From Synechocystis sp. PCC 6803 substr. PCC-P (GTDB taxonomy: Bacteria; Cyanobacteriota; Cyanobacteriia; Cyanobacteriales; Microcystaceae): a DNA stretch of 32,000 nt. Numbering within the stretch: position 1 is the stretch's first letter; each line of letters starts with the position of its first letter. The notes under the pieces were generated by a model. That model ran no database searches and was not told the origin of the DNA. It saw nothing but the letters and a program-made list of their open reading frames with translations. Location: positions 60,001 through 92,000 of the forward strand of contig NC_017039.1 in the NCBI RefSeq assembly GCF_000284455.1. Direction: 5' to 3'. The position numbers and the translations under genes were made by a program. This document shows, in pieces, positions 17,833 through 20,773 of this stretch.

Positions 17833-17922
17833 GTTTCTAGCGGACTGATCCCTTGTTGTCCATGCTACAACCATTTTCGACCCCAAAGGGAGGACTGATC
17901 CCAACTGATCCCCTTGGTTTTG

Positions 17923-17949
17923 CTAGCCCAGACGACGGGCGATCGCCGT
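17923..17949 (-). pseudogene. Ghost 3' end of purL (reads T-A-I-A-R-R-L-G-stop)
   Basis: The minus strand reads ACG GCG ATC GCC CGT CGT CTG GGC TAG. The live purL tail 547 nt upstream reads ACG GCG ATC GCC CGT CGG CTA AAA TCC TAA. The first 17 nt are identical and the next two codons are synonymous. Confidence 0.55.
17933..17949. repeat. 17-nt direct repeat, copy 1 (CGACGGGCGATCGCCGT, HIP1-centred)
   Basis: Exact match to 18480-18496. The bases flanking each copy differ on both sides. Confidence 0.9.
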
Positions 17950-17979
17950 GAAGTGGCCTTTAACAAGCCAGGTAATTAA

Positions 17980-18246
17980 TTAAGATTCAGTACAAACTAG
18001 GGGAAAACGTTCAGGATGTTTGATGATGTCCAAGGTCAAATCTACGTCCAGATCGGGCCAATAAAAATGATTGGCGGTTGGCTCAATGACATTGAAAATA
18101 TGTTTTACCAGAGCGTTTTTAAACCAGGGAAAATCGTCGTAGGACAAAAATAACTCATTGTCCCCAGACAACAACCAAATTCCATGGCTAGAAATATGGG
18201 TAATTTCAACAGTTGAAATGTTTTTGCCAAGCGTCTCTAAGCTCAT
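17980..18246 (-). CDS. DUF2442-domain protein
   Basis: The C-terminal pattern FPWFKNALVKHIFNVIEP...FYWPDLDVDLTLDIIKHPERFPL matches my memory of the DUF2442 family. ATG at 18246; the track's TTG at 18261 is an alternative. Confidence 0.78.
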   Translation of the reverse strand: MSLETLGKNISTVEITHISSHGIWLLSGDNELFLSYDDFPWFKNALVKHIFNVIEPTANHFYWPDLDVDLTLDIIKHPERFPLVCTES

Positions 18247-18445
18247 TTTGTCTGGCCTCAATAATCTTTTCGATGGTTTTCAGTTCCGACCGAGATAACT
18301 TGTAGTTTTTTGCCAACTCAATTTCAGGTTCAAGCCAAAACTTTGCTTCTCCCTTTTCGCAATAGATATGGACGTGCATTCTTGTTTCTTCACGAGAAAA
18401 GAAGAAAAAACGATAGCCCTCCTCTTTAAAAACCGTTGGACTCAT
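18206..18445 (-). CDS. DUF4160-domain protein
   Basis: The sequence GYRFFFFSREETRMHVHIYCEKGEAKFWLEPEIELAKNYKLSRSELKTIEKII matches my memory of the DUF4160 family pattern (GYRFFFYSNE...PHIHV...AKFWL). ATG at 18445, stop TGA at 18206-18208. Confidence 0.82.
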   Translation of the reverse strand: MSPTVFKEEGYRFFFFSREETRMHVHIYCEKGEAKFWLEPEIELAKNYKLSRSELKTIEKIIEARQNELRDAWQKHFNC

Positions 18446-18466
18446 GGAGTTTTTCCGTTGCTAGTC

Positions 18467-20773
18467 TTAGGATTTTAGCCGACGGGCGATCGCCGTTTGC
18501 CAAGGTTCTGTCAGAGCGGAAACTGGTAAATCAATCAGAGCGTTATTTTGGGCATCGATAAAAGTCAAGTTGCCCTGTGCTGTACCCACTACTCCCAATT
18601 TTTGCCAGGGTAAGGACTGACCAGCTAAATAGTTTTCCCAGGCAGGCTGATGTTCCGGTGCCACCGCTACCACAATGCGACTGGCGGATTCCCCAAACAG
18701 CAAGTTATCCAATCTTTGGTCGGAATCAGGTAGATTAATTTCCGCTCCCAACTGACTGGCGATCGCCATTTCTGCCAGGGCTACCGATAAACCCCCTTCC
18801 GCACAGTCATGGGCCGCGTTCACCCAACCTTGGGCAATACCATGGCGACAGGCTTTTTGCACTGCTTTTTCCAAATCGAAATCCACCTGGGGCGGCTGAC
18901 CAGCAACGGTGTGATGGACAACGGCTAAATATTCCGATCCCCCGAGGGTATTGCCGTCATTACTACCCAGTAAGTAAATGCCATTCCCCGAATTGCGCCA
19001 ACCTTGGCCAACAACTTTATTGATGTTTTCCACCCGTCCCACCATGCCAATAACCGGCGTGGGATAAATGGGTTGGGGTCTACCGTTGGAGTCCAACGTT
19101 TCGTTATACAGGCTGACATTGCCCCCCGTCACTGGGGTGTTTAACTGCCGACAACCCTCCGCAATGCCTTCACAGGCCAGGGCCAACTGCCAATAGCCCA
19201 CTGGATTTTCAGGGCTACCAAAGTTTAAATTATCCGTTACCGCCAGGGGTTCTGCTCCCACACAACTGAGATTTCGAGCCGCTTCTGCCACTGCGGCCTT
19301 GGCCCCTTCCAAGGGATTTAAGTAAACGTAACGGGCATTACAATCTGTGGTGGCCGCCACCCCGATCACACATTCCTCTGGTTTGGCATCCAGGGGACGC
19401 ACCCGCACCACCGCCGCATCGGCCCCACCGGGCACTATGACCGTATTGTTTTGTACTTGATGGTCGTATTGACGGTAAACCCAATGCTTAGAGGCAATGG
19501 TGGGACTGTCCAACAGGGTTAATAACACTTCATTCCAGCTTTGCTTTTGCCCTGCAATTTCAATGCCGGCGATCGCCGCTGGAGATAAATCACTTTCCTG
19601 CCATTGCCAAGCTTGTTGGGCATAGTCGGGTGCTTGGTCTAGCAACTGACGATGGTAAATGGGAGTGTTATCGGCCAGGGCTGTAGCGGGAATTTCCGCC
19701 GCAATCCCTCCTTGGAAAAAGATCCGCACAATGGGATCCGCAATCACCTGCCCCGCCACCACCGCCTGTAAACCCCAACGATGGAAAATATCGATTAATT
19801 CCTGTTCCCGCCCCGGTTGAGCCACAAATAACATCCGTTCTTGGGATTCGGATAGGAGATATTCGTAGGGCACCATGCCCGTTTCCCGCACTGGAATTTT
19901 ATCCAAATCCAACTCAATGCCCACGCCTCCCTTGGCTGCCATTTCCGCCGTGGAACAGGTAATGCCCGCCGCTCCCATGTCCTGGGCCGCCACCACTGCC
20001 CCACTTTTAAAGGCTTCCAAGCAAGCTTCAATTAAGGATTTTTCCAGAAAGGGATCCCCCACCTGCACCGCTGGGCGATCGTCCATGGACTGATCCGTTA
20101 ACTCAGCACTGGCAAAACTGGCTCCCCCCATGCCATCCCGTCCCGTGGTGGAACCGACATATAAAACTGGATTGCCTATCCCAGAAGCCCCAGCTTTGAC
20201 AATTTCTTCCGTTTCCATCAAACCCAAGGCCATGGCGTTGACGAGGGGATTACCGGAGTAAGCCGGATCAAAGTAGATTTCCCCGCCCACAGTGGGCACA
20301 CCAACACAATTACCGTAATGACTGATCCCATCCACTACCCCGGTGAAAATACGTCGATTCCTAGCATCGTCCAAATTACCGAACCGTAGGGAATTTAAAA
20401 TGGCGATCGGCCTCGCTCCCATGGTGAAAATATCCCGCAGAATCCCCCCTACTCCGGTGGCGGCTCCCTGGAATGGCTCCACTGCGGAAGGATGGTTATG
20501 GGATTCGATTTTAAACGCCAATCTCAGGCCATCCCCCAAATCTACGACCCCGGCATTTTCCCCAGGCCCCACTAAAATGCGTTCTCCTTCGGTGGGAAAG
20601 TTACTCAGTAGGGGACGGGAATTTTTATAACAACAATGTTCTGACCACATGACACCGAACATTCCCAGTTCAGCTTTGTTGGGATGGCGGCCGAGCCGTT
20701 GCACAATATCTTCGTATTCTTCGGGTTTGATACCTTCGGCAGCGATTTCGGCGGGAGTAAAGGGGGCGGTCAT
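18467..20773 (-). CDS. purL: Phosphoribosylformylglycinamidine (FGAM) synthase subunit II
   Basis: Motifs [12 protein letters not shown] and [28 protein letters not shown], with duplicated AIR-synthase-like domains. ATG at 20773 ([10 protein letters not shown]) or 20800. Confidence 0.95.
18480..18496. repeat. 17-nt direct repeat, copy 2 (inside the last codons of purL)
   Basis: Exact match to 17933-17949, 547 nt away. Confidence 0.9.

Follow-up and report, generated by a model that had tools for sequence, protein, structure and literature searches.

How did two small genes come to separate purL from trxC in Synechocystis, and why does the end of purL recur beyond them? We addressed this in Synechocystis sp. 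PCC 6803 substr. PCC-P, in a 32,000-nt stretch of DNA (contig NC_017039.1, positions 60,001 to 92,000; hereafter the window). A preliminary description of the locus, made from the sequence alone, had reported that the two genes, with DUF4160 and DUF2442 domains, are bracketed by a 17-nt direct repeat. It proposed that a module was inserted at the 3′ end of purL, bringing a replacement tail and stranding the original tail and stop codon just upstream of trxC. After comparison with related genomes, we consider it likely that a toxin-antitoxin (TA) cassette integrated into the last 30 nt of purL via a shared core built on the highly iterated palindrome HIP1 (GCGATCGC), importing a foreign tail and stranding the native one.

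The repeat, ACGGCGATCGCCCGTCG, lies on the minus strand, as do all features of the window described below, at 18480–18496 and 17933–17949, 547 nt apart from start to start. The upstream copy contains HIP1 and codes for T-A-I-A-R-R near the end of purL (sll1056, FGAM synthase II; 18467–20800), a 777-aa open reading frame (ORF) identical to BAA16646.1, the PurL of Synechocystis sp. PCC 6803. This live tail reads T-A-I-A-R-R-L-K-S-stop. The downstream copy, the ghost, reads T-A-I-A-R-R-L-G-stop in the equivalent frame. Coordinates, spacing and frames agree with the preliminary description. The live copy is followed by GCTAAAATCCTAAGACTAGCAACGGAAAAACTCC (18446–18479), which holds the final purL codons, the stop codon (18467–18469) and 21 nt leading to the DUF4160 ATG; in alignments it is the most variable segment among cassette-bearing strains. 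The cassette closes with the non-coding sequence TTAATTACCTGGCTTGTTAAAGGCCACTTC (17950–17979), which adjoins the ghost and lacks homology to purL, so the downstream repeat starts exactly at ACGG. The ghost continues with TCTGGGCTAG (17923–17932; L-G-stop), the rest of the stranded tail. One repeat copy, the replacement tail and the cassette together form a 547-bp unit (17950–18496). The enclosed DNA is AT-richer, as first estimated by hand count: G+C is 39.2% in the 530 bp between the repeats versus 50.0% in 1 kb of flanks and 48.8% in the whole window.

If the unit was inserted, relatives might carry the site without it. Close relatives were found through the 90%-identity PurL cluster and the genomic context of exact proteins. 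The PurL of Synechocystis sp. CACIAM 05 (P0125) ends in TAIARRLG, and its gene directly precedes trxC (locus L084), which is the empty site that had been predicted. In alignment with the window, this locus is short of exactly the 547-bp unit, and its DNA across the purL tail and beyond (ACGGCGATCGCCCGTCGTCTGGGCTAGCAAAACC...) matches the PCC 6803 ghost base for base, including the ten positions at 17923–17932. With the 547 bp deleted in silico, PCC 6803 is colinear with CACIAM 05 (16 mismatches in 1017 nt), with zero mismatches from −135 to +226 of the core (362 nt identical). The more distant Synechocystis sp. CS-94 (L089) also lacks the cassette; its purL tail is ACGGCGATCGCCCGTCG-TCTGAGCCATTGA (RRLSH-stop) and runs contiguously into the conserved region upstream of trxC. 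Locus L090 is empty too, with the same tail and the same contiguity. In both L084 and L089 trxC (sll1057; PMC6262485), at 17494–17826 in the window and matching Pfam Thioredoxin, is directly 3′ of purL.

The same 17-mer stands at the purL tail of a metagenome-assembled genome (MAG) whose PurL is 78% identical over the C-terminal 250 aa. That gene ends in CGTCGCTTAGGCCTTCATTAA (RRLGLH-stop), homologous to the CS-94 tail; it has no trxC nearby and an unrelated downstream context. The upstream copy of ACGGCGATCGCCCGTCG is thus conserved purL coding sequence in the genus, present at the CACIAM 05, CS-94 and MAG tails. Because the CS-94 and MAG tails are ghost-type, the ghost is the native Synechocystis purL end, ancestral for the genus, and the original tail and stop codon were stranded before trxC as proposed. 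The nearest cassette-less relatives all carry this ghost-type tail, not the RRLKS end.

Five other loci are filled by the cassette at these junctions, namely the metagenomic contigs L085 and L086, S. salina LEGE 06099, Synechocystis sp. FACHB-383 and LEGE 06083. The live tail is ASRLQSQD-stop in the two contigs and RRLQF-stop in the other three. All five retain the ghost, at 19 or more of 21 core positions. Around the exact DUF4160 protein on a Synechocystis chromosome, the gene order is purL, DUF4160, DUF2442, thioredoxin, dapB and adk. PCC 6803 and S. salina have 17 nt of exact repeat and L085 has 11 nt; an imperfect repeat of ~32–41 nt appears only if a 9-nt indel is allowed in the alignment. 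A 7-mer noted earlier, CTAGCAA, follows both copies in the window (18458–18464 and 17920–17926). Only the PCC 6803/L085/S. salina group has it after both copies, and it is therefore not essential to the structure. In FACHB-383 (L176:3449–3478) and LEGE 06083 (L177), the upstream repeat is mutated to ACGGCGATCAGCCGACGG, which destroys its HIP1 site, and PurL reads TAISRRLQF. Only ~7–10 nt of direct repeat are left in these two strains, so repeat-mediated excision of the cassette should be impossible there.

Where did the live tail come from? After the 17-nt core, purL continues with GTTACAGTTTTAAATGTCAACAATGG in FACHB-383, GTTACAGTTTTAAAACTAGCAACGG in S. salina, GTTACAATCCCAAGAC... in L085 and GCTAAAATCCTAAGAC... 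in PCC 6803. The native Synechocystis tail continues with TCTGAGCCATTGA or TCTGGGCTAG. In Snowella sp. ULC335bin1 (L002), purL's own tail continues with TTTAAAAGTTTAAAATGACAA, and in a Microcystaceae contig (L178) the motif adjoining a homologous cassette continues with GTTAAAGGTTTAAAATGTAATCCAATG. Set side by side, the tails read GGTTACAGTTTTAAATGTCAACAATGG (FACHB-383), GGTTAAAGGTTTAAAATGTAATCCAATG (L178), CGTTTAAAAGTTTAAAATGACAA (Snowella purL) and TCTGAGCCATTGAACC (native Synechocystis). The live tails of cassette-bearing Synechocystis resemble those of Snowella and L178 and not the native tail, which favors an imported replacement tail, as proposed, over a diverged native copy. More distant Merismopediaceae PurL proteins end in RRLK[IV], and we read these ends as the probable source type. 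Together, these likenesses indicate that the replacement tail came with the cassette from such a lineage. Judged by sequence comparison, the C-terminal residues of PCC 6803 PurL are foreign, of Snowella/Microcystaceae type.

Co-import of donor purL upstream of the core was considered and ruled out. Identity between PCC 6803 and CS-94 drops past purL nt ~1200, and the drop is due to CS-94, which is Snowella-like in this part: its residues 400–600 are 88–89% identical to L002 in amino acid sequence, versus 75–81% for PCC 6803. The PurL of CS-94 has a pattern of its own. Its residues 400–600 are just 75–79% identical to PCC 6803 and its N-terminal 400 residues 94–97%, which points to an intergeneric recombination tract within purL.

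The purL tail is also reused in other genera. In a search of 80 cyanobacterial purL loci for downstream repeats of each gene's own tail, only Snowella L002 was positive. Its live tail, GCGATCGCCCGTCGTTTAAAAGTTTAAAAT, lies at 5105–5134 (purL end 5131). A first tail copy follows at 5418–5447 with 4 mismatches, and a second at 6088–6117 includes a 28-nt exact repeat (6090–6117) of the live tail. The array runs from the live tail through a DUF2283 ORF, a tail copy, and an antitoxin-like ORF with a PemK/MazF toxin to the second tail copy, and more TA genes lie beyond. The L002 repeats are 27–30 nt and end at the purL stop codon or 4 nt past it. On L178, a DUF4160/DUF2442 pair, its DUF4160 85% identical to that of the window in amino acids, is followed by GGGCGATCGCCCGTCGGTTAAAGGTTTAA, in frame AIARRLKV-stop. 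Past this first tail copy come a DUF433 gene and a truncated partner (judged by eye), then a second copy, GCCGATCGCCCGTCAGTTAA, at the contig end. The gene upstream of the cassette is ccsA-like, and purL is not on the contig. Cassettes in Synechocystis, L002 and L178 are all co-oriented with purL.

Two side observations belong here. The DUF2283 cassette of L002 is also present in a Merismopediaceae MAG (L001:3188–3400), truncated there at a junction where new sequence starts with GGCGATCGCC (HIP1). The Snowella purL ORF (L002:1394–5131) is 1245 aa long versus ~769 aa in relatives, owing to an insert of ~476 aa that follows HYGNC, ends in VTHNC and is intein-like by appearance.

Where the junctions fall can be compared across these events. 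We took the junction start as the point where homology of the downstream copy to purL begins, counted from the left edge of HIP1. It is −3 in Synechocystis, 0 and +2 for the first and second copies in L002, and about −1 and +1 for the two copies in L178. Since all starts fall between −3 and +2, HIP1 forms one edge of the recombining segment in every event examined. This agrees with a preprint in which HIP1 within homology arms raises integration by natural transformation in a Chi-like manner (Kamoku & Nielsen, bioRxiv 10.1101/2024.09.10.611283), and with older proposals. The latter concern plasmid recombination, the insertion site of SDR5 and excision (Akiyama 1998; Robinson 1997; Elhai 2008; as cited in PMC5861425). 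The suggestion that a HIP1-centred site was used for integration therefore stands in that the junctions start at HIP1; it is less novel than presumed, as recombination roles for HIP1 had been proposed before. What we add is that all ghost copies at the purL-tail site start at HIP1. The part HIP1 would play in the insertion is mechanistically unproven.

HIP1 is abundant, with 31 sites in the 32-kb window, and the repeat could be asked to rule out chance. Within the window, ACGGCGATCGCCCGTCG occurs exactly at these two positions alone, and allowing up to two mismatches adds a single match, at 7076–7092. No ACGGCGATCGCCCGTCG match occurred in 100 dinucleotide-preserving shuffles. As an empirical null, we used ~1 Mb of cyanobacterial DNA, in which 1155 pairs of HIP1 sites lie within 3 kb of each other, and counted exact matches including HIP1. 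There were 457 pairs at 8 nt, 137 at 11 nt, 14 at 13 nt, 2 at 14 nt, 1 at 16 nt and 3 at 17 nt, and two of these three 17-nt matches are the purL locus itself (PCC 6803 and S. salina). Across 1.06 Mb of compared loci (635 HIP1 sites), the 12-mer CGATCGCCCGTC is found only at purL tails, their ghosts and locus L178. A common extended HIP1 variant, which would have made the duplication coincidental, and a dispersed repeat are thus both ruled out for the 17-mer and the tail motif within the window and these loci. Three matches to the tail motif in a scan of viral contigs are unrelated and attributed to chance. A different 17-nt HIP1-containing direct repeat, TCAGCGATCGCTTTTTT, occurs in L001 at 5273–5289 and 6144–6160. 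The copies are 871 nt apart and enclose two small ORFs of 116 aa and 158 aa; with its T-run this pair could be chance, or it could bound another cassette.

That the whole structure is a coincidence, with two HIP1 sites of similar flanks beside an old resident gene pair and nothing inserted, deserves practically no credence. HIP1 is very common, GCG-ATC-GCC is a frequent in-frame reading and the unrelated L001 pair matches over 17 nt. Yet alleles with and without the cassette have exact boundaries, the ghost equals the live tail of an empty allele, the shuffles gave nothing and the same structure recurs in other genera. The empty sites of CACIAM 05 and CS-94 already refute coincidence, and the comparison of empty and filled alleles makes the question of chance irrelevant. 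A plain insertion with long target duplication has more to recommend it but is still improbable. Here, the cassette would have gone in after the purL stop codon, ~30–40 nt of native tail would have been duplicated and the upstream copy would have diverged later. Such duplications are documented for restriction-modification addiction modules, in Microcystis among others, with repeats overlapping gene 3′ ends (PMC2853133). The Snowella live tail and its distal copy share 28 identical nt and look like a true duplication, and two unrelated metagenomic DUF4160/DUF2442 cassettes sit within direct repeats of 75–76 nt (96% identity in L118, 88% in L162). The Synechocystis copies, however, agree over 17 nt only; beyond that they are set apart by substitutions and an indel of 9 nt, with the upstream copy far nearer the Snowella/L178 tail than the native one. 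In FACHB-383, among the deepest lineages with the cassette, the tail is still Snowella-like, which speaks against later divergence from a native copy. Since the ghost equals the CACIAM 05 live tail and is near that of CS-94, all of the change would have to fall in the coding copy, which would have to converge on the sequence of another genus.

A dedicated site-specific system was also considered. The ~30-nt HIP1-plus-tail motif would be the att site of a recombinase encoded elsewhere (Xer-like, integron-like, or of the tyrosine or serine type), and small TA cassettes would move as circles between purL tails, like integrative mobile elements exploiting Xer (IMEX) at dif or like pdif modules. 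At least four cassettes (DUF4160/DUF2442, DUF2283, MazEF-like and a DUF433/DUF5615 remnant) are bounded by the same motif, in one orientation and in arrays, with boundaries fixed at HIP1. Each element brings a replacement gene end, as att-site elements do, and the motif is found nowhere else in the 1.06 Mb of compared loci. We nevertheless find this doubtful. There is no recombinase near any locus viewed, and the motif has no obvious two-arm architecture for recombinase binding beyond the HIP1 palindrome. The upstream copy in FACHB-383 has lost HIP1 with no visible consequence, the sample is three lineages, and the same products are explained if the host carries out homologous recombination or repairs a break at a Chi-like HIP1.

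The reading we favor, integration through the core shared by a foreign and a resident purL tail, would run as follows. In the ancestor of the PCC 6803/S. salina/FACHB-383 clade, incoming DNA would have consisted of the cassette and an adjoining purL tail of Snowella/Microcystaceae type, that is, the HIP1 octamer, CCGTCG and ...TTA-[AC]A[AG]-xxx-stop. A crossover would have taken place within the ~17 nt that the two tails share because both encode TAIARR. Two routes can be envisaged: a small circle could have integrated by a single crossover (Campbell-type), or a break at HIP1 could have been repaired with transformed donor DNA as the template. Either would give the order purL, core, foreign tail, cassette, core and native tail, with purL intact and the native tail and stop codon stranded before trxC. 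Deletion between the repeats would restore purL with its native tail, making the insertion reversible, and each further insertion at the purL-tail site would add a tail copy and build short cassette arrays. The insert itself matches only the two Pfam domains, with no mobility gene and no inverted repeats at its ends. No recombinase family is found within 4 kb on either side of the cassette or in the loci viewed (L002 included), nor is an intI-like gene found in these loci. As the insert holds no recombinase, the enzyme would belong to the recombination machinery of the host or act in trans. The repeat is a coding tail and not an attC-like imperfect palindrome. Features of a transposon or miniature inverted-repeat transposable element are lacking, as there are no terminal inverted repeats and the repeat is gene-tail sequence of at least 17 nt.

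Sequence comparison shows the insertion itself, the replacement tail, the ghost, the empty alleles, the reuse of the site and the boundaries at HIP1. Several points weigh against this scenario. We infer a circle or break-repair intermediate and an enzyme, and neither a circle nor an enzyme has been seen. A 17-nt homology is short for RecA-dependent recombination, and the model does not explain how a tail-cassette-tail unit was first created. The evidence from other genera comes from metagenome-assembled contigs, 43.7 kb for L002 and only 2.1 kb for L178, and L178 links the cassette to a purL-tail fragment but does not show insertion in purL. Divergence within the cassette is a further difficulty. 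Among PCC 6803, L085 and S. salina, synonymous divergence (dS) of the cassette is 0.04–0.13 versus 0.33–0.52 for purL, dapB and adk; cassette/flank ratios are 0.13–0.30, so that the cassette is 3–8 times less diverged (17950–18445 in the window; L085, L087). The replacement tail, in contrast, differs at 6–8 of 31 positions per pair, near the neutral level of the flanks. With low cassette dS and a variable tail, a simple history in which the tail travels with the cassette does not fit. Slow synonymous evolution as the cause of cassette similarity is ruled out by the comparison with FACHB-383, where the cassette/flank ratio is 0.83–1.3. The pattern suggests a later exchange limited to the cassette.

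What is the history of the locus? Flank identity to PCC 6803 (purL/downstream) is 96/98% for CACIAM 05, 92/88% for L085, 89/85% for S. salina and 78/84% for CS-94, giving the order ((PCC 6803, CACIAM 05), L085, S. salina/FACHB-383) with CS-94 outside. The cassette is in all of these lineages save CACIAM 05 and CS-94, and the live tails change stepwise in the same order as flank identity. The most economical history is one gain followed by one loss through deletion between the 17-nt repeats. Since CACIAM 05 is nested in the filled clade, its empty site is quite likely a secondary, precise deletion, and the 362 identical nt around its junction fit a recent event. Against the scenario above stands the alternative that the cassette never reached this allele, which we think rather unlikely. 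The purL–trxC locus is clearly mosaic.

The same locus shows other rearrangements. The trxC of L085 (6965–7297) has a dS of 1.2 to PCC 6803, whereas its purL, dapB and adk neighbors have 0.28–0.42 and the trxC of CS-94 has 0.48; in L085, an allele from a distant source appears to have displaced the original one. In another Synechocystis-like strain (Logan SRR27833277 contig, L088:2–1428), unrelated DNA takes the place of the DUF4160 gene and the first DUF2442 codons. This DNA codes for an HNH_2 endonuclease-domain protein of at least 380 aa, and the ghost tail and trxC are intact downstream. L088 thus represents a second, different rearrangement at the purL–trxC locus.

What does the cassette carry? 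The two enclosed ORFs were confirmed as members of the families first named. The DUF4160 gene (18206–18445; 79 aa) encodes the predicted DhiT-type toxin of the pair and matches Pfam PF13711 with E = 5.2e-19 (68.6 bits versus a cutoff of 23; profile positions 1–65 of 65). The DUF2442 gene (17980–18246; 88 aa from the ATG at 18246, the form in public records) encodes the predicted DhiA-type antitoxin and matches PF10387 with E = 3e-12 (47 bits versus a cutoff of 23.9). The two genes overlap by 41 nt. DUF4160/DUF2442 is DhiTA, a validated TA pair in Dickeya dadantii 3937, for which growth inhibition by the toxin, neutralization by the antitoxin and promoter autoregulation by the complex were reported (PMC8198452). 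By domain content, the cassette is an ordinary two-gene member of the DhiTA family of type II TA pairs, with TA activity predicted from that family. DUF2442 lies directly downstream of DUF4160 in all 80 metagenomic homologues fetched, and many proteobacterial plasmids carry the pair. A DUF4160 protein of 75 aa is listed for PCC 6803 under the name Ssl2064 (PMC8136920), and going by this listing, not by coordinates, the DUF4160 gene of the window is probably ssl2064.

Several other origins and roles for these parts were considered and set aside. No copy of the cassette was found on a cyanobacterial plasmid; the nearest plasmid homologue, in Shewanella baltica, is 60% identical in DUF4160 amino acid sequence. 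With just two distant phage matches as well, a plasmid or phage source was rejected. The DUF4160 family has an invariant H-V-H (H-x-H) motif, and a HUH-type or other recombinase was rejected since neither sequence nor fold matches anything in the PDB. The AlphaFold2 model has a predicted local distance difference test score (pLDDT) of 84 and a best Foldseek match of E = 1 versus the PDB, and a published analysis found no structural homologue of DUF4160 (PMC12065111). Simple scans of the purL–trxC interval revealed no promoter or terminator, and the ghost region has no Rfam match and a folding z-score of −0.85; a functional RNA or terminator there was ruled out on these results. Conservation of the ghost is likewise no sign of function: excluding the 8 HIP1 bases, 1 difference per 13 nt is not significant (a hand estimate).

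The metagenomic DUF4160/DUF2442 cassettes with long repeats differ in setting. One (L118:2896–3606) lies between housekeeping genes within 75-nt direct repeats, and the other (L162:574–1361) within 76-nt direct repeats that are hairpin-rich. Their DUF4160 proteins are 70–71% identical to that of the window, and the two cassettes are unrelated. The long repeats may be either attC-like sites or target duplications. Several cassettes share a GCGTTATG-like motif ~20 nt before the ATG and 40–65 nt past the stop codon.

The function of HIP1 has been open for ~30 years, and recent laboratory work suggests that it promotes DNA uptake or recombination. The purL tail offers natural junctions with a HIP1 start: the one of Synechocystis and a pair each in Snowella and on the Microcystaceae contig. 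Since the filled PCC 6803 and the empty CACIAM 05 can both be cultured and transformed, the idea is directly testable. The locus may serve as a model for how minimal TA modules without a mobility gene move between genera, enter an essential housekeeping gene harmlessly and leave cleanly. In the model strain PCC 6803, the purL–trxC interval is not ancestral, and the cassette genes (probably ssl2064 and its partner) are a recent mobile addition. A bolder proposal, which we advance only tentatively and think unlikely, is that the HIP1-anchored purL tail (GGCGATCGCC-CGTCG-...stop, ~30 nt) is the attachment site of an undescribed cassette-exchange system of Merismopediaceae/Microcystaceae, in which 0.3–1-kb circles with TA or defence genes are inserted by a HIP1-recognizing enzyme. 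The cassettes would be promoterless or self-regulated, and HIP1 would be recognized or cut by an enzyme of the host or one acting in trans. Each insertion would renew the purL tail and shift the older cassettes further downstream, in the manner of an integron attI site or, for IMEX, of dif. If true, HIP1 would have a definite natural role in the acquisition of genes.

How does the locus compare with known systems? Islands that target tRNA or tmRNA genes integrate at the 3′ end of a conserved gene and bring a substitute for that end. Related elements include the integrase-less derivatives known as cis-mobilizable elements (CIMEs), the Xer-dependent IMEX and pdif modules, which often carry TA genes. 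As in these att-flanked elements, the direct repeats at purL are a shared core, a functional replacement 3′ end is supplied while the original is displaced, tandem arrays form at one site (L002, and the two copies of L178, where purL is not on the contig) and excision between the repeats restores the target. Unlike them, the purL-tail units are just 0.3–1 kb, neither the insert nor the flanking DNA viewed encodes a recombinase, the site is a protein-coding tail, and the core has the HIP1 palindrome as its basis and not a known recombinase site.

HIP1 itself has been reported at recombination junctions, with more frequent integration where it is methylated or homologous (PMC5861425; Kamoku & Nielsen 2024). 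These reports cover plasmid recombination, engineered constructs and SDR5 mini-elements, and not the natural insertion of a cassette with replacement of a gene tail. The genes carried are less unusual: the cassette has the same two Pfam domains as DhiTA of Dickeya dadantii 3937 and likewise places the toxin gene first, overlapping the antitoxin gene (PMC8198452).

The closest described phenomenon is insertion with long target duplication by restriction-modification (RM) units (Nobusato et al. 2000; Furuta, Abe & Kobayashi 2010, PMC2853133), the mechanism of which is unknown. There too, a small selfish addiction module without transposase or integrase is flanked by direct repeats that are a single copy in an empty-site relative (here CACIAM 05 and CS-94). 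The repeats may overlap the 3′ end of a gene, and the hosts are mostly naturally transformable bacteria, Microcystis included. The purL cassette differs from RM units in that its cargo is a TA pair and its exact repeat, at 17 nt, is under their 30-bp criterion. Its upstream copy is the heterologous purL tail of another lineage and not a copy of the target, and the purL site has been reused by different cassettes in different genera.

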